A stretch of 64,000 bases of DNA from Coprothermobacterota bacterium (lineage in GTDB: Bacteria; Coprothermobacterota; HKB111), in assembly GCA_037440465.1 (NCBI GenBank), contig JBBIUB010000002.1, positions 9,705 to 73,704 of the forward strand, given 5' to 3'. Positions 1 through 32,651 of this stretch are shown piece by piece (positions within the stretch are counted from its first letter, which is position 1; every line of letters starts with the position of its first letter). The notes under the pieces are model-generated. The model was not told where the DNA came from. It saw only the letters and a program-made list of their open reading frames with translations, and did not search any database. A program made the position numbers and the translations under genes.

Positions 1-329
1 ACCGCCTGTTTTTTGATAAAGGACGAGACAATTTCTTAATAGAACAAATAACTCATTTGGCACTTCTATGGGTTGAATCGAAGCCTTCTTACTAATCTCG
101 CTTAACAGAGAATCCTGTTTATATCTATCAAGAAAAAGATCTACCTTCCTAAACTCTTCCCAAGCTTCTCTAACTAATTCTTTATCCCTGCTATTATATA
201 TGGTTACTCCGGCATAAGTGTCCATTGTTATATCTCTGTAAACAACATTCCCGGTTTTTACACAAAAAAACCAAACAAAAAAAACAATAATAAGACTTAT
301 CAGCAGGATATATTTAAATATTCTCCGCA
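1..329 (-). CDS. apbE: FAD:protein FMN transferase ApbE family, N-terminal part (gene continues beyond window start)
   Basis: Minus-strand reading from ATG at 329 with GGGAG 4 nt upstream gives MRAVRRIFKYILLISLIIVFFVWFFC (signal/TM) then ...DKELVREAWEEFRKVDLFLDRYKQDSLLSEISKKA...LLRNCLVLYQKTGG. The TGG(AFD) ApbE signature region is recognisable. Lies at the end of the rnf array. Confidence 0.6.
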
Positions 330-1319
330 CAGCTCGCATCTCCCGACAGAATCAACCTTCATCGAGACAACCTTAAAACCCACTCTCTCTATCACCGCTT
401 TCTTGCATCTGGGACAAATTGTATCTTCTCCCCCTTCAATATGAATATTACCAAGATAAACAAACAATAAACCTTCTTCATAACCAATTTCTCTTCCTTT
501 GATAAGGATAGTAGTTGGAGTAGCAGGAAAGTGAGAAAGGTGATAATAAGGAAAAAAACGGGTTATATGCCAGGGGGTAGTATGCCCCAGTTCTTTTTTT
601 ATAAACTTGCTTATTTCTCTTAATTCCTTTTCACCATCATTAACAGTAGGAATAACATTTGTAACCACTTCTACATGCTTCCCTTTTTCTCTGGCGAGAA
701 CAGATGATCTCAATGGTATTGCAACCTCAGATAAACCTGTAATAAATTGAAAAGAATCTCTAAAAAATGCTTTTATATCTATTCGATACACATCTATGAA
801 AGGTAAAAGTTCTTTAAGTGGGGCTTCATTAATAAAACCATTGGTAACCATAACCGTGTAAAATCCTTTTTCTTTAAGCATTGGAGCACTTTCCATAATA
901 TAATCCCACCATATAGTTGGCTCATTATATGTCCAGGCCACACCCTGAGAATCAGTTTCTTTAGCAATTTGTACTAAAGTCTCAGGTTTTATTCTTTTTG
1001 TATTTACTTCTTCCAGAATAGATTGAGATAGCTCCCAGTTCTGGCAATGCTTACACCGCAAGTTGCATCCTACAGAACCTAAGGAAAGGACATTACTACC
1101 TGGTTTGTAATGGAAAACAGGTTTCTTCTCAATTGGGTCCACAGCTATTGAGGCTACAAGTTCATAAACCAAAGAAATTAAAACCCCCTCTCTATTTTTA
1201 CGTGTACCACAAACCCCTCTTTTTCCAGGATCCAACTTACATTTAATAGGGCAAAGGAGACATCTGACTTTCTCTGAAGTCAGTTTTTCATAATGAGTAA
1301 CTTTCTTCAAGATGTTCAA
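300..1319 (-). CDS. amrS: AmmeMemoRadiSam system radical SAM enzyme
   Basis: 339 aa with canonical CNLRCKHC (CxxxCxxC) radical SAM motif plus an N-terminal Cys cluster. Adjacent to AMMECR1 and Memo-like genes. Confidence 0.8.
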   Translation of the reverse strand: MNILKKVTHYEKLTSEKVRCLLCPIKCKLDPGKRGVCGTRKNREGVLISLVYELVASIAVDPIEKKPVFHYKPGSNVLSLGSVGCNLRCKHCQNWELSQSILEEVNTKRIKPETLVQIAKETDSQGVAWTYNEPTIWWDYIMESAPMLKEKGFYTVMVTNGFINEAPLKELLPFIDVYRIDIKAFFRDSFQFITGLSEVAIPLRSSVLAREKGKHVEVVTNVIPTVNDGEKELREISKFIKKELGHTTPWHITRFFPYYHLSHFPATPTTILIKGREIGYEEGLLFVYLGNIHIEGGEDTICPRCKKAVIERVGFKVVSMKVDSVGRCELCGEYLNISC

Positions 1320-1329
1320 GTCTTCGAAA

Positions 1330-1863
1330 TCAGTGATACCTTGTTACTTCAAAGCGATATATCTTAACTTCTTCACTTCCCAAATCTGCTTTTAACCTGG
1401 CTATCTCTAATTGCTTATCAACTGTATCTATACCTTCTATATCAGGAAGAAGAAGCCCTTTCTTGCCCCTCCCTTCTAATAAAACTCCATACCTCTTAGG
1501 ATCCAATTCTTCCTTTGAGTAAACAAATTCCAGGGGTTCCAAAACATCTACAGAATAGGTGAGTTCGTCTAACTCCTCAACACTAACTGGCAAAAACCGT
1601 GGGTCAAGAGTAACTGCTTTAATAGCATTATCAATAACTTCTAAAACCAGATTCTCCCTGGTCGGGACTATCGTTCCTATGCAACCCCTTAATTTTCCTT
1701 TATGCTTCAAAGTAACAAAACATGCATTCTTTTTAGAGGTATATTCTTTCATGTCAGGATGGGATACTTCCTCGTACCTTTTCCCCTCTTTAACATGAAA
1801 TTCGATTACCTCTTTAGCTAATTTAACTAAAGGATGCATTCTGGCTAACTGAAATACTTCCAA
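1330..1863 (-). CDS. amrA: AMMECR1 domain protein (AmmeMemoRadiSam system protein A)
   Basis: 177 aa; the CFVTLKHKGKLRGCIGT motif is typical of AMMECR1. Confidence 0.8.
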   Translation of the reverse strand: MEVFQLARMHPLVKLAKEVIEFHVKEGKRYEEVSHPDMKEYTSKKNACFVTLKHKGKLRGCIGTIVPTRENLVLEVIDNAIKAVTLDPRFLPVSVEELDELTYSVDVLEPLEFVYSKEELDPKRYGVLLEGRGKKGLLLPDIEGIDTVDKQLEIARLKADLGSEEVKIYRFEVTRYH

Positions 1864-2629
1864 CTAAATAACCAACTCCAAAGGGTCCCTCATATGAATA
1901 GAGCTTAGTATTTATTTGCTCTCCAGTGAAAAATCCCAGAACTGCGAGTAGAGGTCTAAATCCACACTCAGCAGCATGTTCCAGAATATCTTTATCCATT
2001 TCCAGAAGAATATTCTTATTACCAGTGCTAAAGAAATCAGATATATATTTGTCAAACACTTTCCCTCTTATATCATATCCTGCTGGAGCACTATGTGTAA
2101 GACAATGGGAGAGGTCACCACTTGCCAAAAAAAGAATATTTCTCCCCAGCTCCTTTGCTATACTATCAATTACTCTACCTATTTCCTTGGAATACTCTGA
2201 ATCGTTCCAGCATATACCACTTGCAACTATTTTTCCTTTTATCCCTTTTTTCTGAAGAAAATACAACGGAACCAGTACCCCGTGGTCAAGAGGTTTATCT
2301 TTAATTGCTTCAAATTTAATTTTTCCATTAAAAGAAAAGAGTTTATTTAAAAACTCTTCATCAGAGTAAGCTTTTAGAGAAAACCCTGAGATTCCAAAAT
2401 GCGAAAAATCTCCACTTAATACCTTCTGCGAATAAACATTGATACTTTCAATACCTGCTGGTGCATGTGGACTAACAATCAAGATAGTATCAAAAGATAT
2501 ATCTTTTATATCATTAAGAGCATTGTCGATTCCTCCTAATGTGTTCTCAACACGCTTCAAGTAATTTTTACCAATTTCATCAATTATTATAGGAGGATGC
2601 GGAAACAATAAACCAACTTTATGATACAC
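1823..2629 (-). CDS. amrB: AmmeMemoRadiSam system protein B (MEMO1/extradiol dioxygenase class III-like)
   Basis: 268 aa Memo-like fold. Position in the Amme-Memo-RadicalSAM trio. Confidence 0.7.
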   Translation of the reverse strand: MYHKVGLLFPHPPIIIDEIGKNYLKRVENTLGGIDNALNDIKDISFDTILIVSPHAPAGIESINVYSQKVLSGDFSHFGISGFSLKAYSDEEFLNKLFSFNGKIKFEAIKDKPLDHGVLVPLYFLQKKGIKGKIVASGICWNDSEYSKEIGRVIDSIAKELGRNILFLASGDLSHCLTHSAPAGYDIRGKVFDKYISDFFSTGNKNILLEMDKDILEHAAECGFRPLLAVLGFFTGEQINTKLYSYEGPFGVGYLVGSISVSQNASFS

Positions 2630-3452
2630 AGGTCGATTCAGTTACCTCCATATACTGTACAATAGTATGTGTAGGGCATTTCTCAACGCAAGTCCCACAA
2701 TTATCACAGAGATTGTAGTCTATAATAGCTAAATTGCCAAGTATAGGATCTAAATGTATTGCACCTTTTGGGCAATTTTTAACACATACTCCGCATTTAA
2801 TACAACCAACTTTACATGCTTTTCTAACATCAGGTCCTCTTTGTACAGATGCACATGTAATTACTGTTCTTTTTTCTTTATCAATTAAAGTTATTACATT
2901 TCTCGGACAGCTACTTACACAAAGCCCACAAGAAGTACACTTCTCTTCGTTTATGAATGGCAGACCAGTCTCAACCATTGTAATAGCCTCAAAAGGACAA
3001 GCTAATTCGCAATCTCCAAGACCCAAGCAGCTATATATGCATTGCTTAAAACCACCAGAGATTTGAGAAGCAGCTTTGCATGAATATATACCTTCATATT
3101 TAGCTCTAACAACTGCATTTTCCTTATCTCCCTGGCATTTCATTCTTGCTGTCCTGGGAAGTATGACTTGTGCCTTTATTCCCATTATCTGAGAAATCTC
3201 ACCAGCTATTTTTGCTCCTCCTACAGTACATTTTGTGGGAACTGCTTCGCCATTAACAATGGCTTCAGATAGTTGTCGGCAACCAGGAAATCCACATGCA
3301 CCACAATTTGCTCCAGGGAGAAGGGCTAAAATATGTTCAAGCTTAGGGTCTTCTTCTACTCTGAATTTAAGAGAAAAAAGAGCAAGACCAGCTCCAAAAA
3401 CCAAGCCTAAACCACCAGCAATTAATGCACCTTTTAATATATTCGCCAGCAT
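2619..3452 (-). CDS. rnfB: Rnf complex subunit B (polyferredoxin type)
   Basis: N-terminal TM plus CGACGFPGC Fe-S domain, then multiple CxxCxxCxxxCP 4Fe-4S motifs. Last gene of rnfCDGEAB. Confidence 0.9.
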   Translation of the reverse strand: MLANILKGALIAGGLGLVFGAGLALFSLKFRVEEDPKLEHILALLPGANCGACGFPGCRQLSEAIVNGEAVPTKCTVGGAKIAGEISQIMGIKAQVILPRTARMKCQGDKENAVVRAKYEGIYSCKAASQISGGFKQCIYSCLGLGDCELACPFEAITMVETGLPFINEEKCTSCGLCVSSCPRNVITLIDKEKRTVITCASVQRGPDVRKACKVGCIKCGVCVKNCPKGAIHLDPILGNLAIIDYNLCDNCGTCVEKCPTHTIVQYMEVTESTCVS

Positions 3453-3466: not shown

Positions 3467-4054
3467 TTATTTAGCCATTCCAGAAAAACCCATAAAAGCT
3501 ATTGATAATAATGCAGTCATAATAAATACTATTGGATAACCACTCAAGGGAGCTGGAACATTACTATTTTTTATTCTCTCTCTAAGATTTGCAAGCAGGA
3601 ATAGTGCCAGGACATAGCCCAAAGCTACTCCTGCTGAACTAACTACAGCTTTTATTAAAGTATATCCTTCTCTCTGGTTTATAAAGGTAACGCCTAATAT
3701 CGCACAATTTGTAGTAATTAATGGTAGATAAATACCCATGACTCTATAAAGAGATGGAACACTCTTACGTAGATAAAGTTCTACAAGTTGAACAAGAGAC
3801 GCTATAACAAGAATAAAAGTTAGGGTGCTGAGGTAAGTCAGACCGAAGGGTATGAGAAGTAAGTTATTCAAAAACCAGGTAACCGCACCTGCTAAAACCA
3901 TAACAAATGTTACTGCCCAGCTCATTCCCAATGCAGCTCCAATGTCAGTTGTCATTCCTACATAAGAGCAAAGTGCCAAAAATCTCATTAAAACTATATT
4001 ATTAACCAGAAGAGCAGCTATAAAAAGGTTAAGAAGATCCATGTTGATGGCCAC
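3467..4054 (-). CDS. rnfA: Rnf complex subunit A
   Basis: 195 aa polytopic membrane protein of the RnfA/NqrE type. Confidence 0.85.
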   Translation of the reverse strand: MAINMDLLNLFIAALLVNNIVLMRFLALCSYVGMTTDIGAALGMSWAVTFVMVLAGAVTWFLNNLLLIPFGLTYLSTLTFILVIASLVQLVELYLRKSVPSLYRVMGIYLPLITTNCAILGVTFINQREGYTLIKAVVSSAGVALGYVLALFLLANLRERIKNSNVPAPLSGYPIVFIMTALLSIAFMGFSGMAK

Positions 4055-4655
4055 CTCCCGCTCCTTTCTTTTTAAATATCGTATTAAAAATTGAAATCAT
4101 AAGTCCGATCGTGAAAAATGCACCAGGAGGTAAAATCATAATTAAAGCTGGCTCAAAGTTAGAAGGAACCACTGGATAACCTAAGATAGTCCCATTACCT
4201 AAAAGCTCTCTTATTCCTGAAAGAATGAATAATGTAAGGATAAAACCAGCTCCTATACCTATAGCATCAACAATTGACCATACTGTGCTTTGACGAGAAG
4301 CAAATGCTTCTGCTCTTCCCATTACTATACAATTCACAACAATAAGAGGAATAAATATTCCAAGTGCTTTGTGTAAGGGAGGAAAATAAGCAGCCATAAT
4401 TAAATCAGTTATAGTAACAAATGTAGCAATTACTATGATAAATACGGGTATTCTAATCTCTTTAGGAACCCATCTCCTTATTATTGATATTGTTAGATTG
4501 GACCCTAAAAGAACAAAAGTTGTAGCCAACCCCATTCCAACCCCATTAAGGATTGTAATTGAAACAGCAAGAACAGGGCACAGACCTAACATTAATTTTA
4601 GAACAGCATTTTCTTCAACTATCCCATTTACAAAGACATTCCAAAGATTTTTCAT
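4029..4655 (-). CDS. rnfE: Rnf complex subunit E
   Basis: 208 aa; LGLCPVLAV motif typical of RnfE/NqrD. Confidence 0.85.
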   Translation of the reverse strand: MKNLWNVFVNGIVEENAVLKLMLGLCPVLAVSITILNGVGMGLATTFVLLGSNLTISIIRRWVPKEIRIPVFIIVIATFVTITDLIMAAYFPPLHKALGIFIPLIVVNCIVMGRAEAFASRQSTVWSIVDAIGIGAGFILTLFILSGIRELLGNGTILGYPVVPSNFEPALIMILPPGAFFTIGLMISIFNTIFKKKGAGGGHQHGSS

Positions 4656-5215
4656 TTTAGCCAGACCTCCTTATTCTGAAGAATAAGTGTTGCAGCTTTC
4701 TGAACAGCTTTAGTAACAGCTACCGATGATTTAGTAGCCCCAGTTATAGCTTCAATATCTGTCTTTACTTCAAAGGGGTCTCTTAAAGATTTCCCGGTAA
4801 AACGATTAAGAAAATCGACACCAGTAATTTTAGAACCCAACCCGGGAGTTTCTTTGTGCTCTACAACCTTAATGCCCACAATCTTCTCTTCTTTAGTGAT
4901 TCCAACTAAAATAAGTATTGGACCTCCGTAACCTACAACTTCAACCTTAGCTACTAATCCTTTCCTTAACTCTTCATCATCAAAACCAATATATATCTCT
5001 TTTATTTTTACAATCTTATCAAGACGAACTGGCTCAAAACCTTCAAGAAGATGAAAATCAGCTGCTGATGGGAAAACCTCAGTAAGTAAATTTTTTATTT
5101 CATCAGATTTGGCTTGTTCGATAATAGGTTCAGTCTGATGATAAACAAGCGATAAGGAGCCTGAGGCTATAATGCTAGCAAACATTAGTATAAAACCATG
5201 TTTTACAACATTCAT
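4652..5215 (-). CDS. rnfG: Rnf complex subunit G (FMN-binding)
   Basis: 187 aa; N-terminal TM and FMN_bind motif ITGATKSS (the flavinylated Thr). Confidence 0.85.
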   Translation of the reverse strand: MNVVKHGFILMFASIIASGSLSLVYHQTEPIIEQAKSDEIKNLLTEVFPSAADFHLLEGFEPVRLDKIVKIKEIYIGFDDEELRKGLVAKVEVVGYGGPILILVGITKEEKIVGIKVVEHKETPGLGSKITGVDFLNRFTGKSLRDPFEVKTDIEAITGATKSSVAVTKAVQKAATLILQNKEVWLK

Positions 5216-6150
5216 TTTTTCACCTCACCAAACTTCCTTGGTAAAGTAACTCTTTCAATTATTGGAGAAAATGCATTCATTATCAAAATTGCATAGGTAA
5301 CACCTTCTGGATACCCTCCAAAAGCTCTAATAATCAGAGTGAGAATTCCACAACCTAATCCAAAGATTAATCTTCCTTTTGAAGTAACAGGACTTGTCAC
5401 ATAATCTGTAGCCATGAAAAAAGCTCCCAGCATAACTCCACCAGCTAAAATCTCAATAACTGGATCCCTTCCCAATAAAAGGCTAAGAATGGCCATGCTT
5501 CCCAAATATGAAACAGGGATATACCATTCGATGGTTCTCGTCATAAGCAAATATATACCTCCAATAAGAATAAGTAAAGCTGAAGTTTCACCAATTGAAC
5601 CAGATACATTTCCATAGAATAAATCCCAGTATGAAGGTAGTTTATCAACTCCATCTTTTAACAATGCAAGTGGTGTGGCCGTTGTTAGACTTTCAAATGG
5701 AGTAATAAAAGTTGTTATATGCACCGGCCAGGACACACTTAGGACAGCTCTTCCTATAAGTGCAGGGTTAAAGGGATTTTGACCTAAACCACCGAAAAAC
5801 TCTTTAGCTACGATAATGGCAATCCCACTACCTACAACAGGAATCCACCATGGTACTGAAGGTGGCAAGGTTAATCCAAGAAGAATACCCGTTACAACCC
5901 CGCTTGAATAAGTTCCGGGGATTATTTTTCTCTTAAATACTCTTAATATAAGAAATTCAAAAACAATAGCTGAAACAGTAGATAGACCTACCACACGTAA
6001 AAAATTAACTATTCCAAAGAAATAAACTGCAGCAATCATAACAGGGATTAAGCCGATGATGACTCTCCTCATAATTTTATTTGGATTAAGATCTGTACGA
6101 AAATGAGGAGAAGGCGAGATTACAATTTTAGTATTAAATTCACTGGACAC
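5212..6150 (-). CDS. rnfD: Rnf complex subunit D
   Basis: 312 aa NqrB/RnfD-type polytopic membrane protein. Confidence 0.9.
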   Translation of the reverse strand: MSSEFNTKIVISPSPHFRTDLNPNKIMRRVIIGLIPVMIAAVYFFGIVNFLRVVGLSTVSAIVFEFLILRVFKRKIIPGTYSSGVVTGILLGLTLPPSVPWWIPVVGSGIAIIVAKEFFGGLGQNPFNPALIGRAVLSVSWPVHITTFITPFESLTTATPLALLKDGVDKLPSYWDLFYGNVSGSIGETSALLILIGGIYLLMTRTIEWYIPVSYLGSMAILSLLLGRDPVIEILAGGVMLGAFFMATDYVTSPVTSKGRLIFGLGCGILTLIIRAFGGYPEGVTYAILIMNAFSPIIERVTLPRKFGEVKK

Positions 6151-6162: not shown

Positions 6163-7461
6163 CTAAGCCTTAGTGCTAACTTTTCTTCTTTTGAAAATCT
6201 CTGACTTGGCTACCTTAACATAATGAACTAAAGGAATTGAGGCTGGGCATGCATAAGTACAACTACCACACTCAAAACAGTCAAGAGCTCCGAAATACTC
6301 AGCTTTTGAATAGTCTTCAATTTTAGTGTTCAATGCTATATATAAAGGCATTAACCTGAGGGGACAGACTTTCACGCACCTACCGCATCTAATACACTCA
6401 CCTTGCATGAATTCATCTTTTTTTCTTAAAAAGAGAACACCAGAAGTGCCTTTAATAATTGGGACATCGAGAGATGACTGTGTTATCCCGGTCATCGGCC
6501 CTCCTGTTACAACTTTATATGGTTCTTCAGGTAATTTAATGTAATTATCAGAAACATCTTTGATAAGTGTTCCGAGTGTTACCATTGCATTGGCAGGTTC
6601 TTTAATTAAATCTCCTGATATAGTAATAACTCTTTCTGTAAGAACCTTTCCTTCAAGGATTGCTTCAGTAAGACAAATAGCAGTAGAAACATTACTGACC
6701 ACTACTCCAACATCCATAGGAAGTCCGCCTCTGGGTACTTCTCTCTTTAGAAGAGTCTTTATTAGTACCTTCTCTGCACCTTGAGGATATTTTGAAGGAA
6801 GAATAGATACCTTAATAGCTTCTTCAGCTTTTACAGACTCATTCATAATTGTAATAGCATCTTTTTTATTATCTTCTATTGCAATTATCCCATTTCTTGC
6901 TCCAACAGCTTTCATCATTAATTTAAGACCAAGAATAATTTTATTAGATTTCTCCAGCATCTGTCTGTGGTCAACAGTAAGATAAGGTTCGCATTCTGCG
7001 CCATTTATAATAACTACTTCAACAGGTTTGTTGGGGTTTAGTTTTACTGCTGTGGGGAATGCAGCTCCACCTAAACCAACCAATCCAGCTTCTCTTGACC
7101 TTGATGAAATTTCCTGTGGAGAAATATTCATTCCCAGAGGTTTAAGCTTTAATTCTTCAAAGTCACCTTCTCCTTCAATAATGACAGATTCTATCTCTCG
7201 ACCAAGTGTAGGGTGCATCCAAGGGGAAATCGCTTTAATCTTACCGCTGATAGAAGCATGAATGGGAGCAAAAACATACTGGGTTGAATCACCTATAACC
7301 TGGCCTTTTGTAACCATGTCACCAACTTTGACAATAGGCTGAGCTAAGGCTCCTGTATGTTGCTGTAAAGGAAGAACTACCAATTTAGGAACTGGTAACT
7401 GTGAAATTGGTTTTTGACAGGTTATTTTTAATTCTGGTGGTCGTAATTCATGATAGGACAT
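6163..7461 (-). CDS. rnfC: Rnf complex subunit C
   Basis: 432 aa; GGAAFPT NADH-binding region and two C-terminal CxxCxxCxxxCP motifs. Confidence 0.9.
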   Translation of the reverse strand: MSYHELRPPELKITCQKPISQLPVPKLVVLPLQQHTGALAQPIVKVGDMVTKGQVIGDSTQYVFAPIHASISGKIKAISPWMHPTLGREIESVIIEGEGDFEELKLKPLGMNISPQEISSRSREAGLVGLGGAAFPTAVKLNPNKPVEVVIINGAECEPYLTVDHRQMLEKSNKIILGLKLMMKAVGARNGIIAIEDNKKDAITIMNESVKAEEAIKVSILPSKYPQGAEKVLIKTLLKREVPRGGLPMDVGVVVSNVSTAICLTEAILEGKVLTERVITISGDLIKEPANAMVTLGTLIKDVSDNYIKLPEEPYKVVTGGPMTGITQSSLDVPIIKGTSGVLFLRKKDEFMQGECIRCGRCVKVCPLRLMPLYIALNTKIEDYSKAEYFGALDCFECGSCTYACPASIPLVHYVKVAKSEIFKRRKVSTKA

Positions 7462-8188
7462 CGTATTTCCTCCTAATATATCTATCTTCTTCTGTCTTAA
7501 AAATATACAGTAATCCTTCCCAGTTTAATTCATTTAGATAAACCTGAGTGAGATTAGGCTCAAGATCAGAAATGTCATGAGCATCAGAAAAACATACCAT
7601 TTTTAAGTGTTTCGGGATTTTCACTTTCAATGTTCCATGAGATGACATCTCTACTCCTTCAATATTCAAGCCTGGGGGTATAAAACCCAGCTGGGAGAAA
7701 ATACTAAAAGAAGATCTATTGACATGAGCTAACAAAATGAAAGTATTATATTCCCTGGCTTTTGAAATAATCTCTTCTAAAGAAAGATTAACAGAAGGCA
7801 TAAGTAACCTTTTTTCTATTGATTTAACCATATCTTTTTCATTAACAATAATCTGGGGTTTTACTGCATCTACATCATCAAAAATAACAGGTAAATGCTT
7901 CCGTAAGAGAACCTCAAATCTCAAAGCTTCTAAATAATTCTTAAAATATATCAGCAGATGAACCTCTTCTCTGGACTGTACTTCAATACCTGGTAAAACT
8001 TGAATATCATATTTCTTCCCGGCTTCACAAAAAGCAGGATAATTTCTTATTGAATGATGATCGGTTATGCCAATCATATCCAAGCCCATTGTTTTGGCTT
8101 TAGAGATAATTTTCCTTGGACTCATATCCCAGGTTGAACAAGGCGAAAGAACAGAATGGATATGAAGATCTATGTTGTACCATCGCAA
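7448..8188 (-). CDS. PHP domain phosphoesterase (HfsC-like)
   Basis: N-terminal DLHIHSVLSPCS and ITDHHS PHP metal-binding motifs. Confidence 0.75.
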   Translation of the reverse strand: MRWYNIDLHIHSVLSPCSTWDMSPRKIISKAKTMGLDMIGITDHHSIRNYPAFCEAGKKYDIQVLPGIEVQSREEVHLLIYFKNYLEALRFEVLLRKHLPVIFDDVDAVKPQIIVNEKDMVKSIEKRLLMPSVNLSLEEIISKAREYNTFILLAHVNRSSFSIFSQLGFIPPGLNIEGVEMSSHGTLKVKIPKHLKMVCFSDAHDISDLEPNLTQVYLNELNWEGLLYIFKTEEDRYIRRKYDVLS

Positions 8189-8529
8189 GGAAGAGTTCCC
8201 CTTATACCAAAAGAATAAAGCTTCCCAATAAGCTCAAATGCAGAGAAAGAAGTTATTAAAATAGATATATTTTCTTCTTTTGCTTTGTTAATTACGTCCT
8301 CTCCGACTTCATGGTTTGAAGCAATAATAACTGCAGATACCTTGCAAAGCGAAGCTACAGCAATTACATTCATATGTGTTTGAATAGTAATCCAAATGTC
8401 ACCTTCTTTGGCACAGCCCATGACATAGCTCAAGAGGTCAGATACAATACCTTTTTTTACTTCAACCTCAAGATCTCCTTCATTTACTAAATCTAAACCA
8501 ATATTTTTAATAATTTCTCTAAGAACCAA
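8170..8529 (-). CDS. DRTGG domain protein
   Basis: 119 aa, similar to the DRTGG paralog at 10760..11113. Embedded in the Hfs-like module. Confidence 0.6.
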   Translation of the reverse strand: MVLREIIKNIGLDLVNEGDLEVEVKKGIVSDLLSYVMGCAKEGDIWITIQTHMNVIAVASLCKVSAVIIASNHEVGEDVINKAKEENISILITSFSAFELIGKLYSFGIRGTLPCDGTT

Positions 8530-9825
8530 CTATTTCACCTCCCTTGATTTAAAACGAACTGAAGAAGGCCCAAGGTGTGATAAATCTCTAACATCTTCAG
8601 CCAATTTTTTCAGTTTGTCTCTTAGAACAAAAATACAATCTGTTATATAAGACCAACCAAGTACTACATCTTCAGCAAAAGCCCGACAAGTTGGAGCGCC
8701 ACAAGCTCCACAATCTATACCTGGTAAGGTTTCAAGAATATGTTCTAACTCTTCCATTTTTCTCATAGAAACATCAATATCATCATCTAACCTTAAAACA
8801 GGTCTTGCTGTAATCTCCTTAGTTAGATTAAACTTTCCAGATTCATACATTGATAATATCTCATCTTTTAAATCATGTGGTATAGTATTTTTTAGTTTAC
8901 TTCTAATATTTTTAAGATTAAAGTCTATTACATGAGTAGAGAGAGCATTAAGTACACCACCAGCACAACCATTACGACATGCCCATAACTCAAGATAATT
9001 AATTGATGCAAAATGACGGGTTTCTACCTCATGGAGAACTTCTGAAACCTCACTTATATAACAAATATTTATACCACTGTATGTTGGTAAGAAATCAGCA
9101 AGCCAATCTCCATCAGCTCCAAGTAACCCTCTGCTTAAGCCATCTCCATTAGTATTTTCAAAAAAGCGTTTGGCTAAATGATAAACATGACTGATGGGGA
9201 TAACATAGTTAATTTGCGAGAAATCCACACCCAAAGGTGTTTTTACAGAAGTAACCTGTGCAGGACAGGATACAAGAAGAGCTACTTGAAATTCTCTATT
9301 CATCTCTTTTACAATTCGAGCTCCTACTTCCCATGGCGAGTCAAGTTTAACCATAAACTGAAGAATATCTGGAAATCTTACTGATAGAAAGCGAGGAATG
9401 CTCGGGCATATTAAAGGAATAAACTTTTGGTTACTTCTATTTTTCATAAAATAGTCTGATAGAAATAAGGGATAAGCTTCAAAAATCATATTAAGATCGA
9501 AAGACCCTTTAAAACCCAGCGATTTGATAAATTTATCCATGACATCAAAAGGAGGTGGTGGGTTAAAATGAGCGTAGAATACAGGAGGAATTAGAACTAT
9601 GGTATTGCTTTTTTCAGGAACAGAAGATAAAGAATCAAATAAAACACCATGGGCTTTATAAGGACATGCTTTTACACACTCTCCACAATCTACACAACGG
9701 ACTGGCAGGATTCGAGCTTTTCCCTCCATAACCCTGATAGACTCAGTAGGGCAATGACGTACACAATGTGTGCACCCCCTGCATATACTTTCTTCCATTA
9801 TTATTGAATGCATATACCCTTTCAA
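8530..9825 (-). CDS. [FeFe]-hydrogenase-like sensory protein (HydS/HfsB-like) with C-terminal RnfB-type Fe-S domain
   Basis: Two N-terminal 4Fe-4S ferredoxin motifs (CRGCTHCVRHCP, CVDCGECVKACP). H-cluster-like L3 motif ELWACRNGCAGG and L2-like VSCP present, but L1 TSCCP is replaced by ICPS. C-terminal LPGIDCGACGAPTC domain. Confidence 0.7.
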   Translation of the reverse strand: MKGYMHSIIMEESICRGCTHCVRHCPTESIRVMEGKARILPVRCVDCGECVKACPYKAHGVLFDSLSSVPEKSNTIVLIPPVFYAHFNPPPPFDVMDKFIKSLGFKGSFDLNMIFEAYPLFLSDYFMKNRSNQKFIPLICPSIPRFLSVRFPDILQFMVKLDSPWEVGARIVKEMNREFQVALLVSCPAQVTSVKTPLGVDFSQINYVIPISHVYHLAKRFFENTNGDGLSRGLLGADGDWLADFLPTYSGINICYISEVSEVLHEVETRHFASINYLELWACRNGCAGGVLNALSTHVIDFNLKNIRSKLKNTIPHDLKDEILSMYESGKFNLTKEITARPVLRLDDDIDVSMRKMEELEHILETLPGIDCGACGAPTCRAFAEDVVLGWSYITDCIFVLRDKLKKLAEDVRDLSHLGPSSVRFKSREVK

Positions 9826-9882
9826 TTCATCTACCTCCCTAAATAAACAATAGCTTTTAGTCTGGTTTCTACAATCTCCCTT

Positions 9883-10779
9883 CTAATAAGAGGTGTTGGG
9901 GTTGTGTTTCCCTAAACGAACTATGGCTCTAAGCTTGGTTCCTACCCCCACTCTACTATCTATTTTGAACTCATCAGAATTTTTTTTGATATTTGATAAA
10001 CCCATACCAGCTCCAAATCCCATTTCACGAATATAATCAGGAGCAGTACTGAACCCCTCTTGGATTGCCAGACTGATATCAGGAATACCAGGTCCTTTAT
10101 CTTCTGCCAGAATCTCTATTTTATCTGTATTTATGTTTGCTTTAAGAACACCTTTATCGGCATAAATAACAATATTCATCTCTGCTTCATAAGCGATAAT
10201 CCCAATTCTGCGAAGTTGATCTGGGGAAATTGATAGCTTCTGAAGGGATTTTCTTAATTGTAAAGCAGCGTTACCAGCGTGGGTAAAATCTTTTCCGAGA
10301 ATCGGGTAGGCATAACTTATTATTCCCTCCGAAGAGGCTTCATTCTTAGACTCTTGTTGGTCAAATACCTCTTGCAGAAAGGAAAATAAAGACCACCAGT
10401 ATATCATACCTATTACCTTAAAATCATCGTCCACAACAGGTAGTCTGCCAAACTTAAATCTGTTCATATCGCGAAGAGCATCAAGCAAAGTATAATGTTT
10501 TGTAACAAATTTAGCAGGTGTACTCATATATTTACTTACAGGTGCTTCTAAATCCTTATTCTCCAGGCAGTTGATAAGATCACTCATAGAAAGAATACCG
10601 AGAAGATGACCATCATCATCAGTGGTCGGGATGCCATCAAGCCTTCTAAGTCGCATCAATTCTTTAGCATGACGCATTTGCCAATAAGGAGTAACCCGGG
10701 GTATATTCTTCACCATGGCTTTTTCAACATTCAAAGAAAGCGTATCTTTTTCTATATCTTTATGCACCTTTGATTCCAC
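9883..10779 (-). CDS. CBS pair + GHKL ATPase (anti-sigma factor type Ser/Thr kinase; HfsD-like)
   Basis: N-terminal CBS pair; C-terminal half with RsbW/SpoIIAB-like ATPase features (GFGAGMGL G-box). Confidence 0.65.
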   Translation of the reverse strand: MESKVHKDIEKDTLSLNVEKAMVKNIPRVTPYWQMRHAKELMRLRRLDGIPTTDDDGHLLGILSMSDLINCLENKDLEAPVSKYMSTPAKFVTKHYTLLDALRDMNRFKFGRLPVVDDDFKVIGMIYWWSLFSFLQEVFDQQESKNEASSEGIISYAYPILGKDFTHAGNAALQLRKSLQKLSISPDQLRRIGIIAYEAEMNIVIYADKGVLKANINTDKIEILAEDKGPGIPDISLAIQEGFSTAPDYIREMGFGAGMGLSNIKKNSDEFKIDSRVGVGTKLRAIVRLGKHNPNTSY

Positions 10780-11113
10780 AATAGTAGAGAATTCCGCATG
10801 TTTCGTATAGTGATTTATTAGTTAAAATGAGTGGAATATCCAAATCTTTAACTAAATTAACCACCGAATCATCAGGCTTTTTACCACCTACAAGAACAAT
10901 AGCGATCATATCCATCATCTCAGCGGTCCTGACCATTTGAGGGCTACATAAAGCAGTTATTAAAAGAGCTCCTGATGTTGGAGAAGCTAAAACATCACTC
11001 ATAAGATCTGCAGCCCAAGCCCTTTCAACCTCGATACCAAGGCTTACGCTACAATGAAATATTTTACCATCTATCTTTGCAATTATTTGATTGAGTTTCA
11101 AGGTCATCCTCAC
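10760..11113 (-). CDS. DRTGG domain protein
   Basis: 117 aa paralog of 8170..8529. Its predicted start overlaps the valS 3' end by 50 nt. Confidence 0.55.
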   Translation of the reverse strand: MRMTLKLNQIIAKIDGKIFHCSVSLGIEVERAWAADLMSDVLASPTSGALLITALCSPQMVRTAEMMDMIAIVLVGGKKPDDSVVNLVKDLDIPLILTNKSLYETCGILYYCGIKGA

Positions 11114-13745
11114 CTAAATAGTTTATTATTTCTTCTATCTTATTAACTTGTTTTTCTAAATCCATAGCTTTTAACTTATAATCCTCCACAGTTTGAGGAT
11201 TCGCTTTCTCAATAAACATCTGGTTTGCAAGATCCTTTTGAATTTTATTTAGATCTTCTCTTAACTTTAATAACATTTCACTTAAGCGATTCTTTTCTTC
11301 ATTAAGATCTACTAAACCTTTTAGATTGACAAATATTGATGTTCCCCTTACAACCTGGGTAGCTGTATGTTTAGGTAATGTATCTAATTCGCAAGTTATC
11401 TTAAGCTCCTGCACTCCTGCTAATGCATTTATTACAGGTGAACCTTCAATAAGAGTTTCATATTCAAAAGCATCTGTTGGGTGCAAAATAACACTTATTT
11501 TTTTATCTGGCTTTATCTTGAAAAGACTTTTTATATTCCTCAACGCAGTAACCGCATCAAATATATATGATACTTTATTAATAGAACTCTCAGATTCTGA
11601 GATAGGAATTTCTTTTACCCATTTTTGTTTTATCAAAGGCACTTTCTCTTCAGGATAAAGGTTATGAAAAATATGTTCGGTAATAAACGGAATAACAGGA
11701 TGAAGCATAACGAGAATGGTTTTCAAAACATAACGGAGAATTGATGAAGTATCTGCTGTTTCCTTTTTAAGTTTTGCAATTTCAATATACCAATCACAAT
11801 AATCTTTCCAGAAGAAATCTTCTAATACTTTAATATAATTACTAAAATCAAAAGCTTCGAGTTTTTTATTGGCTTCTTTAACTACTCTGGATAAACGGGT
11901 TAAAATGAACTGGTCAAAAATATCAAGGTTTGAAGAACTTTGAAAAAGGTCTTCTCCATTATTTTCCTTTGTTACGGAAATTACAAATCGAGAAGCATTC
12001 CATAGTTTATTCATAAAATTTCTACTATGAATTAGATAGGGCTTTCTCAAAGTAATATCTTGCCCCCCAAGAGTATTCAAAGAAGACAGGGTAAACCGTA
12101 AGGCATCAGTACCATATTCATCTGCTAATGCCAGCGGATCTAAGACATTACCCAATGATTTTGACATTTTCCTACCTTTTTCATCTCTAACAAGTCCATG
12201 TATGTATACATATTTAAATGGCGGTTTATTTGTAAGTTCGAGCCCACTCATTATCATTCTTGAAACCCAGAAGGTTATAATATCGTAACCAGTAACCAAC
12301 ACGGTCGTTGGGTAAAAATATTTTAAATCTTCTGTATCAGATGGCCAGTGAAAAACTGAAAAGGGCCAGAGTGCAGAGCTAAACCAGGTATCTAAGACAT
12401 CTTCAACTTTCTTGAGCTCACCGGAACAACATTTAGGACAGTTAATAGGTTCGGTCTGTTGAACCAATAATTCGCCACAAGGTTCACAAATCCAGGCGGG
12501 TATTCTATGGCCCCACCATAATTGGCGCGATATGCACCAGTCTTTAAGATTTTCCATCCAATCTAAATATACCTTAGTCCATTTTTCAGGGATAAAGATA
12601 ATCTCACCATCGCGCACCTTCTCTATAGCTGCCTTTTTAATCTCATTAACTTTCAAAAACCATTGTTCTGAGAGTAATGGTTCAATTAAAGTGTCGCACC
12701 TGCTGCATCTTCCTGGAGAATAGAGATAAGGCTTTTCTTCTAAAATGCGTCCTTCAGATTTAAGGTTACTTATTACTTTTTCTCTGGCTTCCAGGACTTT
12801 AAGACCAGAATATTCTTTTCCACCATTTTCAGTTATCAACCCATCAACACCTACAACAGATATAAGATCCAGGTTATGCCTCTGACTGATATCATAATCT
12901 AAGAAGTCGTGTGCTGGAGTTACCTTTACTACCCCAGTTCCAAAATTAGGGTCTACATCTTCATCAGCTACTATCGGAAGTATTCTACCGATTAGAGGAA
13001 GTATTGCATACTTACCTTTAAGAGATTTATACCTTCCATCTTCGGGATGAACCGCTAAGGCTGTGTCACCCAACATCGTCTCGGGACGTGACGTGGCTAC
13101 ACTTACTTCTCCTCCATCCTCAAGAGAGTAAAGAATATGATAAAGAATACCGTTAGTTTCCTCTTTTTCAACTTCTATATCAGAAATTGCGGTGGAGCAC
13201 CTCGGGCACCAGTTTATTAAATATTTTCCTCTATATATATATCCTTTCTCATACATCCTTACAAAAAATTTTATAACAGCCCTGGAGCAGATTTCATCCA
13301 TGGTGAACCTTTCTCTGCTCCAGTCACAGGAAGCTCCCAACCTTTTGATTTGAGAGGTAATTATCCTACTATATCTTTCTCTGAACTCCTGCATCCGCTC
13401 TAAAAAGGCTTCATGGCCAATCTGTGTTCTATGGATTCCCTCTTTACTTAGCTCTTCTTCAACGACATTCTGTGCAGCTATGCCGGCATGGTCAAGACCG
13501 GGCACCCAGAGAGTTGGCTTACCTTTCATGCGGTTGTAACGAATTAATATATCCTGCAAAGTAATATCCAGGGCGTGCCCCAGATGAAGAGAACCTGTAA
13601 CGTTAAGTGGGGGTATAACTATTACGAATGGAGTAACACCTTCCTTTATTTCAGGCAAGAAGTAATTCCCTCCTTCCCAAAAGAAGTACCATTTATCCTC
13701 AATATCTTTATGATTATAACGTGTAGATAACTGCATATTGCTCAC
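11064..13745 (-). CDS. valS: valine--tRNA ligase
   Basis: 893 aa class I aaRS with HLGH-type HIGH (PPLNVTGSLHLGHAL) and KMSKS (KMSKSLGN) motifs, the ValRS editing domain and a C-terminal coiled coil. Confidence 0.95.
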   Translation of the reverse strand: MSNMQLSTRYNHKDIEDKWYFFWEGGNYFLPEIKEGVTPFVIVIPPLNVTGSLHLGHALDITLQDILIRYNRMKGKPTLWVPGLDHAGIAAQNVVEEELSKEGIHRTQIGHEAFLERMQEFRERYSRIITSQIKRLGASCDWSRERFTMDEICSRAVIKFFVRMYEKGYIYRGKYLINWCPRCSTAISDIEVEKEETNGILYHILYSLEDGGEVSVATSRPETMLGDTALAVHPEDGRYKSLKGKYAILPLIGRILPIVADEDVDPNFGTGVVKVTPAHDFLDYDISQRHNLDLISVVGVDGLITENGGKEYSGLKVLEAREKVISNLKSEGRILEEKPYLYSPGRCSRCDTLIEPLLSEQWFLKVNEIKKAAIEKVRDGEIIFIPEKWTKVYLDWMENLKDWCISRQLWWGHRIPAWICEPCGELLVQQTEPINCPKCCSGELKKVEDVLDTWFSSALWPFSVFHWPSDTEDLKYFYPTTVLVTGYDIITFWVSRMIMSGLELTNKPPFKYVYIHGLVRDEKGRKMSKSLGNVLDPLALADEYGTDALRFTLSSLNTLGGQDITLRKPYLIHSRNFMNKLWNASRFVISVTKENNGEDLFQSSSNLDIFDQFILTRLSRVVKEANKKLEAFDFSNYIKVLEDFFWKDYCDWYIEIAKLKKETADTSSILRYVLKTILVMLHPVIPFITEHIFHNLYPEEKVPLIKQKWVKEIPISESESSINKVSYIFDAVTALRNIKSLFKIKPDKKISVILHPTDAFEYETLIEGSPVINALAGVQELKITCELDTLPKHTATQVVRGTSIFVNLKGLVDLNEEKNRLSEMLLKLREDLNKIQKDLANQMFIEKANPQTVEDYKLKAMDLEKQVNKIEEIINYLGEDDLETQSNNCKDRW

Positions 13746-27255: not shown

Positions 27256-28035
27256 CTAACTGCTTCTTCTGATCTGTATTATTTCTGCAAGAATAGAAAT
27301 AGCTATTTCTGTTGGTGTTATAGCACCTATAGAAATACCAATTGGTGTCTTAACTTGAGATAGCTTATCTTCAGGAATCCCTGAGTTAGTGAGGTTATAT
27401 ATAATCTCTCTCGCTTTTTGACGACTGGCAATCATTCCCAAGTATTTCGGTAAAACGGGCTTCCGTAATATGATTTCTAATATAGATTGGTCAAAACCGT
27501 GACTCCGTGTTGCTATCACTATATACATTCTTTCATTGTCTATATCAAGGTTATGAGCTGTTACCATCATATCGCCATGAATAAAATTAACCTCAGAAGA
27601 GAAATGCTCATCAGTTAGGAGTTCTTTTCTATCATCAATGACTATTACCTTAAAGCCAAGATTAAGAGCTATTTTAGACACAGCTTGACCTATGTGACCA
27701 CTACCAAAGATATATAGCTTATCAATAAATCCCATAGGTTCAATAAATACTGCCATACTACCACCACATAACATACCCAGGCTCTCAAGAGCTATCTCTA
27801 AATACTTAGATTCTTTTAACTCTATACACTTAAAACTTTCTTCTATCACCCTGGATTCTATAGCTCCCCCTCCTACCGTTCCAGATGAACTGCCATCAGG
27901 GTAAATCAACATTTTAAAACCTGTTTTCCCTGGTGCGCCTTCAACCCCTCTTATTACTGTAGCCAAAGCAAAAGGAATCCCAGATTCAAGATTTCCAAGA
28001 ATCTCTTCATAAAGCCTTTTGTCATTTGCTTGCAT
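27256..28035 (-). CDS. XdhC/CoxI family molybdenum-hydroxylase accessory protein
   Basis: 259 aa; XdhC_CoxI N-domain and Rossmann-like C-domain (LYIFGSGHIGQAV). Confidence 0.8.
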   Translation of the reverse strand: MQANDKRLYEEILGNLESGIPFALATVIRGVEGAPGKTGFKMLIYPDGSSSGTVGGGAIESRVIEESFKCIELKESKYLEIALESLGMLCGGSMAVFIEPMGFIDKLYIFGSGHIGQAVSKIALNLGFKVIVIDDRKELLTDEHFSSEVNFIHGDMMVTAHNLDIDNERMYIVIATRSHGFDQSILEIILRKPVLPKYLGMIASRQKAREIIYNLTNSGIPEDKLSQVKTPIGISIGAITPTEIAISILAEIIQIRRSS

Positions 28036-28037
28036 TT

Positions 28038-28658
28038 CTAATTATCCCCTTTCTTGAAATTTATTAATCTTTCGTATTCAACTGGTGTATCCAGGTCCAT
28101 GAGAACCTTTTCATCTTGAACTTCTACTTCCACAATAAAATCAGAATGTCTGTTCAACAAATCTCTAAGTGTATCTTTCTCATTATCAAGAGAAAGAACC
28201 TCACTCCTGAGTTTGTTATTAAACAGTAACGGATGCCCTCTTCTTTTTTTAAAAACAGGGGCAACTATAAGCGAAGTTAAAGGAGAAAAAACATCACTAA
28301 GACTAACTAACCACTTTGACTGTATAAATGGTTGATCTCCCAGAATTACATAGAAACCATCAATATCTTCTCTTAATGCTCTAACTCCAGTCTGCACTGA
28401 AGAAAGCATTCCCTTTTTGTAAGAAGGGTTAAAGACAACCTTAATTCCCAACTCTTTAATCACTGGACCAAGAATGCTCAAAATAATATTTTTATCAAAA
28501 CCAAGAACTAAAATTATTTCTGAAATACCTGAATAGTATAATGTATTCAAAATCCTACTTCCAATTGGCTTGTTATCCCAGGGAAGAAGGATTTTATTCT
28601 TCCCCATTCGCGTTGATTTACCAGCAGCTAAAACTACTGCTCCTAAATTATTTAACAT
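28038..28658 (-). CDS. mocA: molybdenum cofactor cytidylyltransferase (MobA-like NTP transferase)
   Basis: 206 aa; GAVVLAAGKSTRMG nucleotide-binding loop. Confidence 0.8.
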   Translation of the reverse strand: MLNNLGAVVLAAGKSTRMGKNKILLPWDNKPIGSRILNTLYYSGISEIILVLGFDKNIILSILGPVIKELGIKVVFNPSYKKGMLSSVQTGVRALREDIDGFYVILGDQPFIQSKWLVSLSDVFSPLTSLIVAPVFKKRRGHPLLFNNKLRSEVLSLDNEKDTLRDLLNRHSDFIVEVEVQDEKVLMDLDTPVEYERLINFKKGDN

Positions 28659-28782
28659 AAATCCCCTTTTTTATGAGTCTCTTAACTATATGATATTAAA
28701 AGTGGTTTCATTAAAAATGCTAACACAAATTAACTACTCCCTTATAATACATAAAAAATACTGAAAGATTTCATATATAATC

Positions 28783-28813
28783 CAAAAAAATTGGCGGGAT
28801 TTTACTCCCGCCA
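28783..28813 (-). terminator. rho-independent terminator downstream of the permease gene
   Basis: On the minus strand, GGCGGGAGUAAAAUCCCGCC hairpin followed by AAUUUUUUU, 35 nt after the stop at 28850. Confidence 0.6.
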
Positions 28814-28849
28814 AATAATTATTTTAATAAAAGTTCATCCTAAATATTG

Positions 28850-30268
28850 TTAGGACTTAACTCCCCGCTCTTCCAGGGTACCAGGAATAAGGTTATCTAA
28901 AACTAAGCCACATAAAGCTCCAACAGCCATTCCGGTGCTTAGGAGCCGATTGAGAATGTCAGCAATCCACTGGGGGTCAAATGCTATGGGGTTATTTCCA
29001 ACCCACTGAGGAACCCCTAAACCCATGAGGAAAGCAAAACCAATAATTAATAAGTTCCTTTGAGAAGTAAGGTCGGCTCTTCCCAGAATCATGATTCCAA
29101 TAGCTCCAATTACGCCGAAGAGAGCAATATAAGCGCCACCAATGATAGGTGAGGGTATAGTAGCAATAAGAGCACCAAGTTTACCAATAAGGCTCATGAT
29201 TATCAAAAGAATTGCACCTGTTCCAACAACATACCTTGAAGCAACTCCTGTGATTCCTACAAGACCAATGTTTTCTGAATAACTGGTCGTACCAACGCCA
29301 CCGAAAATACCGCTAATCATGCAACCCAAGCCTTCTGAACCAATACCTCTATTTATCTTTTGTGGAGTTGGATCATCAAGTCCAGCAGCATAAGATATTG
29401 AGTGATAATCACCAAAAGATTCAATCATTGAAGCAAAATATGCTGCCAAAATAGCAAAGAAAAAGGTAATATCAAAGACTGGCCTACCATAACGGAATGG
29501 GATTGGCAAATTAACCCAGTTAGCGTCACCAATAGGAGCAAGGTTAATAAAAGCTGCATGCCCTTCTTTAAACACACCCATAAAAGTTAAGAGAAGGCAG
29601 ACAACATACATAAGAGCAATAGAGGATATTACAGATATAAGACGCATCCTTTCACCGAGTAACATGGAAAAAACAAAAATACCCGCTACAACAAGAATAG
29701 CAACAGGCCAGAAGCTCCCTGCGGTACCTACAGCCACAGGTGCTAGACCAAAACCAATCAGCATTATGGTCGGTCCAATAACTATAGGTGTGATAACTTT
29801 CCTTAAAAGTCCAATTAGACCACCATAGCCTACTACAAGCTCAACTAAGCTACCCGATATTAGAGCTCCAGAAATAGCTTGCATTACATAATTAACTCCC
29901 CGTTCTTTGGTGGCTGCAACAATAGCCATAACTGCAGGTATAAAAGAAAAGCTCGAACCCTGAACAATGGGTAACCCACTTCCTATTAAAGATAATTGTA
30001 GTAAAGTGGCAATACCCATAACCAGATAAACAGAGTTTACAAAAACACCAATTTGGACTTTATCCATTCCAATAGCAGGACCAAAAATTAAGGGGACAAG
30101 TGTAGTAGCTCCAAACAAAGTTAAAACATGCTGAAACCCACCTACTATCATAAAGCTGAGAGGTGGTTTGTAATCTACTGGCATAATAACTTTCCTATTA
30201 GGCATATAAAACCTCCTTAAATAATGGATTAAAAAATAATTAAGCCTATTTCTCTTCCCTTTTCTCAC
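28850..30268 (-). CDS. NCS2 family nucleobase (xanthine/uracil) permease
   Basis: 472 aa polytopic; NCS2 signature region. 23-nt overlap with the xdh molybdopterin subunit. Confidence 0.85.
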   Translation of the reverse strand: MRKGKRNRLNYFLIHYLRRFYMPNRKVIMPVDYKPPLSFMIVGGFQHVLTLFGATTLVPLIFGPAIGMDKVQIGVFVNSVYLVMGIATLLQLSLIGSGLPIVQGSSFSFIPAVMAIVAATKERGVNYVMQAISGALISGSLVELVVGYGGLIGLLRKVITPIVIGPTIMLIGFGLAPVAVGTAGSFWPVAILVVAGIFVFSMLLGERMRLISVISSIALMYVVCLLLTFMGVFKEGHAAFINLAPIGDANWVNLPIPFRYGRPVFDITFFFAILAAYFASMIESFGDYHSISYAAGLDDPTPQKINRGIGSEGLGCMISGIFGGVGTTSYSENIGLVGITGVASRYVVGTGAILLIIMSLIGKLGALIATIPSPIIGGAYIALFGVIGAIGIMILGRADLTSQRNLLIIGFAFLMGLGVPQWVGNNPIAFDPQWIADILNRLLSTGMAVGALCGLVLDNLIPGTLEERGVKS

Positions 30269-32642: not shown

Positions 32643-32651
32643 TTTCCACCC

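Follow-up and report, generated by a model that had tools for sequence, protein, structure and literature searches.

What does a set of genes built around an [FeFe]-hydrogenase-like protein do at the head of an rnf operon? The question is raised by a 64,000-nucleotide (nt) stretch of the genome of a Coprothermobacterota bacterium (assembly GCA_037440465.1, contig JBBIUB010000002.1, positions 9,705 to 73,704; hereafter the window), in which five genes stand between valS and rnfC, encoding a small DRTGG protein (DRTGG1), a CBS-CBS-GHKL protein resembling kinase-type ATPases, a HydS-like [FeFe]-hydrogenase-like protein, a second small DRTGG protein (DRTGG2) and a PHP-family phosphoesterase. The explanation that we favour, with a probability of roughly 0.55, is that these genes form a conserved signalling cassette around a putative sensory [FeFe]-hydrogenase of group D, associated elsewhere with hydABC, which in this lineage has been left beside rnf and is co-transcribed with it, its sensing input having been altered. 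The cassette, the protein family and the hydrogenase class are already known, and the rnf-linked, CBS-bearing and pocket-altered version is new.

The HydS-like protein (positions 8530-9825; 431 amino acids; its gene, like all those of the cassette, valS and rnf, lies on the reverse strand) is matched in Pfam by the Fer4 dicluster, Fe_hyd_lg_C and PF04060 families. The Fer4 dicluster match is accompanied by two N-terminal [4Fe-4S] motifs (C15, C18, C21, C25 and C44, C47, C50, C54), all of whose cysteines are invariant in the homologue alignment, while C140, C187, C283 and C287 of the H-domain align with the H-cluster ligands of group A3 HydA (equivalent to C300, C355, C499 and C503 of CpI) and are invariant across 137 homologues. 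Near the C-terminus, C372-GA-C375-GAPT-C380-(16 residues)-C397 forms a Cx2Cx4Cx16C motif within a PF04060 FeS domain scoring 49.6 bits, and the chain stops about 30 residues past this cluster, with no PAS domain match in Pfam at E <= 0.01. The published definition of group D, also termed M2e, is a C-terminal Cx2Cx4Cx16C cluster without a PAS domain (PMC8163306), so that the protein, judged from its sequence, has the architecture of this group. The one member of the group characterised so far, TamHydS from Thermoanaerobacter mathranii, turns over H2 at low rates and has a bifurcating HydABC hydrogenase as its usual neighbour (PMC8163306). Like the window protein, group D and TamHydS combine two N-terminal [4Fe-4S] motifs, the four H-cluster cysteines and the Cx2Cx4Cx16C cluster with the lack of both a PAS domain and the proton-relay cysteine (PMC8163306, PMC13104023). 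The latter (C299 in CpI) is absent from the HydS-like protein, in which I139 precedes C140; in other group D members this position is mostly occupied by Ala or Ser. An AlphaFold model built with 22 homologues has a pLDDT of 86 and a pTM of 0.84, its least confident internal stretch (approximately residues 221-240) covering part of the H-cluster pocket, and its best Foldseek matches, at E about 1e-15 and TM about 0.6, are [FeFe]-hydrogenases without exception.

The initial annotation had classed the module as Hfs-like, a label that turned out to be a near miss, with the theme right and the family different as far as the domain content indicates. PP2C phosphatases and Ser/Thr kinases pair with the Hfs/HydS sensors of group C. 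Pfam gives no PP2C match for any of the five proteins of the cassette, which has a PHP phosphoesterase instead. HfsB and the HydS proteins of Thermotoga and Ruminococcus are group C [FeFe]-hydrogenases, defined by the PAS domain (PMC5707799, PMC8163306), which the HydS-like protein lacks; an Hfs identity of the module was rejected on both grounds. The likeness is nonetheless real, since HfsABCD of Thermoanaerobacterium saccharolyticum and the group C HydS of Thermotoga maritima and Ruminococcus albus also combine a hydrogenase-like sensor and phospho-signalling proteins in the vicinity of fermentative redox genes, and the group C proteins, like that of the window, have an N-terminal Fe-S domain and an extra C-terminal cluster (PMC5707799, PMC10055695). 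Where group C continues into a C-terminal PAS domain, the window has neither PAS nor PP2C and provides DRTGG and PHP proteins.

The partner proteins of the cassette resemble those of a Firmicute locus, L002, which was one of two seed neighbourhoods in our comparison. DRTGG1 (10760-11113; 117 amino acids) matches Pfam DRTGG with 22.9 bits (E 7.6e-5), slightly below the gathering score of 25.2, and shares 52% identity (E 2e-28) with the DRTGG half of a DRTGG-GHKL fusion protein of L002. The CBS-CBS-GHKL protein (9883-10779; 298 amino acids) contains two CBS domains (71.9 bits) followed by HATPase_c (30.3 bits) and HATPase_c_2 (27.7 bits, cutoff 27.4) matches. Its best NCBIfam match is SpoIIAB (E 2e-11), although the 43.9 bits obtained are far under the cutoff of 135, which makes it a SpoIIAB/RsbW-like protein in kind; the N, G1 and G2 boxes of the ATP-binding site are present (EAEMN, DKGPG and GFGAGMG), and the GHKL part is 56% identical to its L002 counterpart. 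DRTGG2 (8170-8529; 119 amino acids) matches DRTGG with 26.1 bits, with a weak Hpr_kinase_N match besides, and is 53% identical to DRTGG2 of L002. The PHP protein (7448-8188; 246 amino acids; Pfam PHP 46.2 bits, E 8e-12) has retained the metal-binding motifs H9-x-H11, D43-H44-H45, E69, LAHVN and SDAHD, and shares 34% identity with the PHP protein of L002. Natural fusions have been found for three pairs of these proteins: DRTGG and GHKL are joined in many Firmicutes, as in the 269-residue protein of L002 (7177-7986), GHKL and HydS form proteins of about 590 residues (P0031, P0073 and P0118), and DRTGG2 is attached to the C-terminus of HydS in a 578-residue protein (P0014). In the searchable open-access literature, DRTGG or PHP proteins are not discussed together with hydrogenases, and the newest TamHydS paper calls the finding of interaction partners a critical open task (PMC13104023). 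The comparative data, through conserved order and fusions, nominate DRTGG, GHKL ATPase, DRTGG and PHP proteins as such partners for group D.

At the level of the DNA, the five genes had been described as a tightly packed set that runs without a break into rnfC, and their content, order and packing are borne out by Pfam and NCBIfam matches and by a reading of each junction. The 3' end of valS overlaps DRTGG1 by 38-50 nt, according to the start codon chosen for the latter; a TTG at 11101 is likely, giving a protein of 113 amino acids that matches those of relatives. DRTGG1 and the kinase-type gene overlap by 20 nt, the HydS-like gene follows after 57 nt that contain the ribosome-binding site AGGGAGG, the TAG stop codon of this gene abuts the TTG of DRTGG2 with no nucleotide between them, and DRTGG2 overlaps the PHP gene by 19 nt. 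The PHP gene and rnfC then overlap by exactly 14 nt (ATGTCCTATCATGA), as had been stated, so that the rnfC start codon lies inside the PHP gene. Promoter- and terminator-like matches occur in the sequence at a frequency no higher than in shuffled sequence, and none falls at any junction of the cassette or before rnfC. An Rfam scan of the window returned only tRNAs, located elsewhere, and no RNA element near the cassette or its junctions.

The operon entered in this way encodes a complete six-subunit Rnf set, rnfCDGEAB, in which rnfC and rnfB were recognised by NCBIfam and the remaining four genes by identity to Pfam-annotated relatives in two loci, L001 and L004. The rnfC gene (6163-7461) matches TIGR01945 with 483 bits, as well as Pfam RnfC_N and Complex1_51K, and is followed by rnfD (5212-6150; 68-79% identity to genes annotated NQR2_RnfD_RnfE), rnfG (4652-5215; 48-60% to FMN_bind genes), rnfE (4029-4655; 75-79% to Rnf-Nqr genes) and rnfA (3467-4054; 81-87% to Rnf-Nqr genes). 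The last gene, rnfB (2619-3452), is of the long polyferredoxin type (TIGR01944 110.7 bits, cutoff 68.7; NF005503 232.8 bits; Pfam FeS and several Fer4 domains). Since the genes overlap, no terminator lies between them and the overlap is conserved in relatives, it is very likely that the cassette and rnf are co-transcribed. Overlap is nonetheless common here, being found at 15 of the 22 junctions of an approximately 20-kilobase (kb) array that extends from rpsB (19925) to a radical-SAM gene (300), and it joins unrelated pairs such as frr/cdsA, rseP/ispG and ispG/glycosyltransferase. Gene overlap is thus the local norm of a compact genome, and argues for co-transcription but not, alone, for a functional link.

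A homologue search over 5.8 billion proteins yielded thousands of HydS-like homologues, and 80 species-level genome loci, among which candidate division WS2 genomes are not listed, were annotated by BLAST against the seed neighbourhoods. In these seeds, a metagenome-assembled genome (MAG) of the Tepidanaerobacteraceae and another metagenome contig, the order is DRTGG and GHKL (separate or fused), HydS, DRTGG and PHP, then hydC, a small HATPase, a 124-residue protein, hydB and hydA; a Rex gene precedes the cassette in L002 only. The same cassette gene order recurs in about 140 loci. Genes for hydC, hydB and hydA adjoin the cassette in 57 of the 80 genome loci (downstream and co-directional in 39, divergent in about 15), and no hyd neighbour is present in the other 23, about half of which end at contig edges. 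Among 63 further metagenome loci, hyd genes were found in 30 and rnf in none, and rnf directly after PHP occurs in none of the 80 genome loci. A divergent subgroup of metagenome loci (L121-L135 and L147; 25-29% identity) has only DRTGG, GHKL and HydS, with DRTGG2, PHP and hyd genes not detected nearby.

Some of these loci bring rnf or valS close to the cassette in other ways. In L008, L026 and L056 a cassette-hydCBA unit has rnf downstream, directly after hydA in L008 and L026 and about 4 kb further in L056. In L045, an uncultured Clostridiaceae MAG (CAYPBK010000042.1, 11880-20592), the order is cassette, hydC, small HATPase, the 124-residue protein (x124), hydB, a 495-nt spacer and rnfCDGEAB; a search between hydB and rnfC found no hydA and no hydA remnant, and this order may be a transitional form between the hyd-linked arrangement and the rnf-linked one. 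The valS gene of the window (11064-13745) is an 893-codon open reading frame whose product is 47% identical to ValS of L008 and L056, and its orthologues in L001 and L004 have the tRNA-synt_1, Anticodon_1 and Val_tRNA-synt_C domains. Nine loci from several Firmicute families and metagenome contigs (L008, L023, L035, L036, L048, L056, L060, L111 and L145) have valS 4-7 kb upstream of the cassette, and since they lie outside the WS2-like clade to which the window belongs, the neighbourhood of valS and cassette predates this lineage.

Among the loci examined, direct linkage of cassette and rnf is confined to the window and its close relatives, with three full loci at 56-70% identity: L001, a WS2-labelled MAG (56%), L004, a Logan assembly (70%), and L085, a metagenome contig (56%). 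A further member, L086, is a contig that ends before rnf would be reached. The clade comprises at least L001 and L004, from the homologue neighbourhoods, together with the loci of a metagenome scan, which found none with a single protein as query and two more clade loci with the clade alignment. Two of the relatives are labelled candidate division WS2, and the nearest named homologues (56% identity) come from MAGs so labelled; a search of the literature on WS2 metabolism found nothing relevant. The linkage of module and rnf that the initial annotation had proposed is kept in these relatives, L001, L004 and L085 all reading valS-DRTGG-CBS/GHKL-HydS-DRTGG-PHP-rnfC with PHP/rnfC overlaps of 11, 8 and 11 nt, respectively. 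All clade members carry the CBS pair on the GHKL protein, and it is absent from the roughly 140 loci outside the clade.

The clade also differs from other group D proteins in the residues lining the H-cluster pocket, which in the window protein include Q190, S186 and G236. At the position of CpI K358 all clade members have Gln (Q190 in the window), while the 132 other homologues have Lys in 125 cases, Arg in five and Gln in two; the equivalent of CpI P354 is Ser or Thr (S186), against Pro in 125 of the 132; and a near-invariant pocket Trp, kept in 130 of the 132, has become Gly or Ala. Both K358, which interacts with the distal cyanide ligand, and P354 contact or shape the site of the [2Fe] subcluster (PMC10147833), and the hydrogen-bonding residues that stabilise [2Fe] are reported to be retained in sensory hydrogenases as well (PMC10055695). 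The replacement of K358 by Gln makes it uncertain that H2 is the signal in this clade. Divergence is concentrated in this domain: H-domain identity to the L002 reference is 24-30% for clade members, against a median of 44-49% (5th percentile 35-36%) for 84 hyd-linked homologues, whereas the C-terminal FeS domain remains at 54-60% (median 58%) and the partner proteins at about 50% for DRTGG and 52-58% for GHKL. This selective pattern points to a change of the sensing domain and not of the signalling scaffold. Taken together, the window departs from the usual group D locus in having rnfCDGEAB and not bifurcating hydABC as its neighbour, in the loss or replacement of these three pocket residues within an unusually diverged H-domain, and in a kinase-like partner that bears a CBS pair.

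A mechanism that would accommodate these features starts with the loss or relocation of the hyd genes in the lineage, which would have left the cassette fused to rnf. Two signals, either H2 or ferredoxin-pool redox state from the Fe-S/H-cluster protein and adenine-nucleotide status from the CBS pair, would modulate the SpoIIAB-like GHKL kinase, with which the two DRTGG proteins would form a complex. The resulting phosphorylation state, reset by the PHP phosphoesterase, would tune a redox complex, namely HydABC in Firmicutes and, by position, Rnf here. Any choice of the adjoining redox complex as target is speculative; one conceivable common target is the NuoF-like NADH/FMN domain (PF01512) that HydB and RnfC share. 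Control of Rnf by the cassette is plausible. The window variant could be viewed as a natural experiment in which the HydABC neighbour was replaced by Rnf, the sensing domain remodelled and a CBS pair gained. If the cassette does act on its neighbour, the way in which anaerobes tune energy conservation by Rnf would become visible in this lineage; if it does not act on Rnf, the locus would be a mere deletion scar in a compact genome.

Known signalling systems offer partial parallels to this scheme. In the partner-switching modules SpoIIAB-SpoIIAA-SpoIIE and RsbW-RsbV, a small GHKL ATPase of the Ser-kinase type is likewise encoded with small single-domain proteins and a phosphatase-like enzyme, and it is only by analogy with them that the DRTGG proteins might serve as phospho-acceptors and the PHP protein as phosphatase. 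Unlike those modules, the window locus has no STAS antagonist, PP2C phosphatase or sigma factor, and no STAS or sigma-factor domain was found among the scanned neighbours in the window, L001 and L004. The eukaryotic Nar1/NARFL proteins likewise have an H-domain fold in which the cluster cysteines are kept and the [2Fe]-contacting residues are not conserved; they differ from the cassette in being cytosolic Fe-S assembly factors without kinase, DRTGG or PHP partners and without a C-terminal PF04060 cluster. The regulatory [NiFe]-hydrogenase system HoxBC-HoxJ-HoxA of Cupriavidus necator shares the concept of a low-activity hydrogenase and a kinase that together report H2, but its hydrogenase belongs to another, unrelated class, signalling runs through a classical histidine kinase with a response regulator, and its transcriptional target is the hydrogenase genes (PMC5707799).

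Several observations weigh against the favoured explanation, in particular against control of Rnf through H2 sensing. Outside the clade, the cassette stands directly beside rnf in none of about 140 loci, and in L045 a hairpin and the AT-rich spacer part rnf from the cassette-hydCB unit. Where there is room on both sides, cassettes without hyd genes stand alone beside unrelated genes, which indicates that the cassette needs no adjacent target. The whole 20-kb array is syntenic in L001 and L004, so that conservation of the linkage is no special mark of the cassette-rnf pair; with overlaps being the rule as well, Rnf is not picked out as the target by gene overlap or by conserved adjacency. An rnf promoter may also lie inside the PHP gene. 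Domain scans of the cassette found no DNA-binding domain and no identified phospho-acceptor. Finally, published work describes group D as functionally undefined (PMC11216029) and its interaction partners as still to be identified (PMC13104023), and no experiment ties a group D cassette to an output.

The main competing explanation is that the cassette is a passive neighbour, left beside rnf by the loss or relocation of hydABC in a compact genome and co-transcribed by default. It would then either be a relic or act on something encoded at another site, such as a hydrogenase or a global redox response. This is a possible, if doubtful, alternative. Taking into account the cassette-hydCBA-rnf order of L008, L026 and L056 and the valS gene a few kb upstream in the nine Firmicute and metagenome loci, a single deletion would yield the arrangement of the window, and the overlap of unrelated genes, the synteny of the entire rpsB-to-ApbE block in L001 and L004 and the existence of standalone cassettes fit such a history. 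Nevertheless, the five genes are intact and keep every Fe-S cysteine and catalytic motif among clade members that are only 56% identical, which means that the cassette is not decaying, and the lineage-specific gain of CBS domains together with the coordinated pocket changes suggests adaptation to a new role over drift. These changes lead to another proposal, rather unlikely as it stands, in which the H-domain has lost the [2Fe] subcluster in this lineage and the [4Fe-4S] clusters of the protein serve to detect ferredoxin or redox state instead of H2. The hydrogenase-like Nar1/NARFL proteins, which keep only Fe-S clusters, provide a precedent. It is in keeping with this proposal that the K358, P354 and Trp positions are replaced in every clade member, given the conservation of [2Fe]-stabilising residues in sensory hydrogenases, and that the H-domain diverged selectively, to the point that the Fe_hyd_lg_C match is partial and weak (33.1 bits, cutoff 22.1; E 6e-8; profile positions 28-152 of 245 only), other group D proteins being matched over the full length at E 1e-30. 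The low-confidence stretch of the structural model that covers part of the pocket fits as well, as does the lack of hydA and of recognisable maturase genes in the window. Conversely, all four cysteines of the H-cluster are strictly conserved, a cyanide ligand could still receive a hydrogen bond from Gln, which also occurs in two of 132 homologues outside the clade, and the 64-kb window is a small fraction of the genome, so that maturase genes may lie elsewhere. This proposal is compatible with the favoured explanation and would refine its input.

A bolder form of the same idea, in which the cassette has been rewired as a dedicated controller of Rnf, is unlikely: the Fe-S clusters would read ferredoxin or redox state with no H2 sensing, the CBS pair would read adenylates, and phosphorylation of a DRTGG protein or RnfC by the GHKL and PHP enzymes would gate Rnf. 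If true, it would be the first dedicated post-translational regulator of Rnf described and would name the long-sought signalling partners of group D; a review of RNF and NQR describes no dedicated rnf regulator of such kind (PMC12174285). It is very unlikely that the HydS-like protein is instead a working hydrogenase that trades electrons with Rnf or ferredoxin, the neighbouring genes being accessory. The low-rate H2 turnover of TamHydS (PMC8163306) and the occurrence of the PF04060 FeS domain at the N-terminus of RnfB as well speak for such a catalytic partner, but the gene is always accompanied by kinase-, DRTGG- and PHP-type genes and in some genomes fused to them, the proton-relay cysteine is replaced by I139, the pocket is further degraded in the clade, and the true catalytic HydABC is the neighbour in most genomes. 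An H2-sensing module of the group C Hfs type is the least probable of all and can be regarded as extremely unlikely, for although it shares the theme of an [FeFe]-hydrogenase-like protein beside a SpoIIAB-like kinase-type ATPase, the PAS domain that defines such sensors and the PP2C phosphatase are both wanting, as described above. A group D signalling cassette with altered input, co-transcribed with rnf, is the explanation that we retain.

The wider context of the window bears on the fate of the hyd genes. Within the 64 kb, neither a further HydA-like gene nor any recognisable hydE, hydF or hydG was found. On the reverse strand, a hydC-like gene of NuoE type (61667-62125) and a hydB-like gene of NuoF type (59800-61686) form a pair with no hydA beside it; the hydB-like product is 51% identical to Firmicute HydB and has a small x124-like domain fused on, and the next gene encodes a G5/3D-domain protein. 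The pair lies directly downstream of acsB, whose C-terminal part is at the window edge, and of a cdhD/corrinoid Fe-S protein gene (window 59800-63959 in all), so that it seems to be a diaphorase attached to the Wood-Ljungdahl cluster. With this pair located by acetyl-CoA synthase and corrinoid genes, and hydA missing both there and elsewhere in the 64 kb, the organism looks like a Wood-Ljungdahl/Rnf anaerobe in which a hydABC-type operon has been taken apart, as far as gene content can indicate.

Further genes of the window can be mentioned briefly. Directly after rnfB, without a break, follows an AmmeMemoRadiSam trio (Memo/LigB-like, AMMECR1 and radical SAM; 300-2629, reverse strand), after which an ApbE flavin-transferase gene, relevant to Rnf maturation, comes next in L001 and L004. 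A block resembling purine/oxamate catabolism occupies 27256-40934 of the reverse strand and comprises XdhC, a MobA-like protein, a xanthine/uracil permease, a cyclase, AllG, an FdrA-like CoA ligase, AllH, a CN-hydrolase and a family III CoA-transferase, as well as a molybdenum hydroxylase with its large subunit at 30246-32642 and its FAD subunit at 33119-33997. A LonC/LonB-like AAA protease gene on the forward strand (41193-43598) converges with a 7-nt overlap on a baeRF (bacterial archaeo-eukaryotic release-factor-like) gene on the reverse strand (43592-44794), and an ABC-transporter gene occupies 44.8-46.5 kb of the window.

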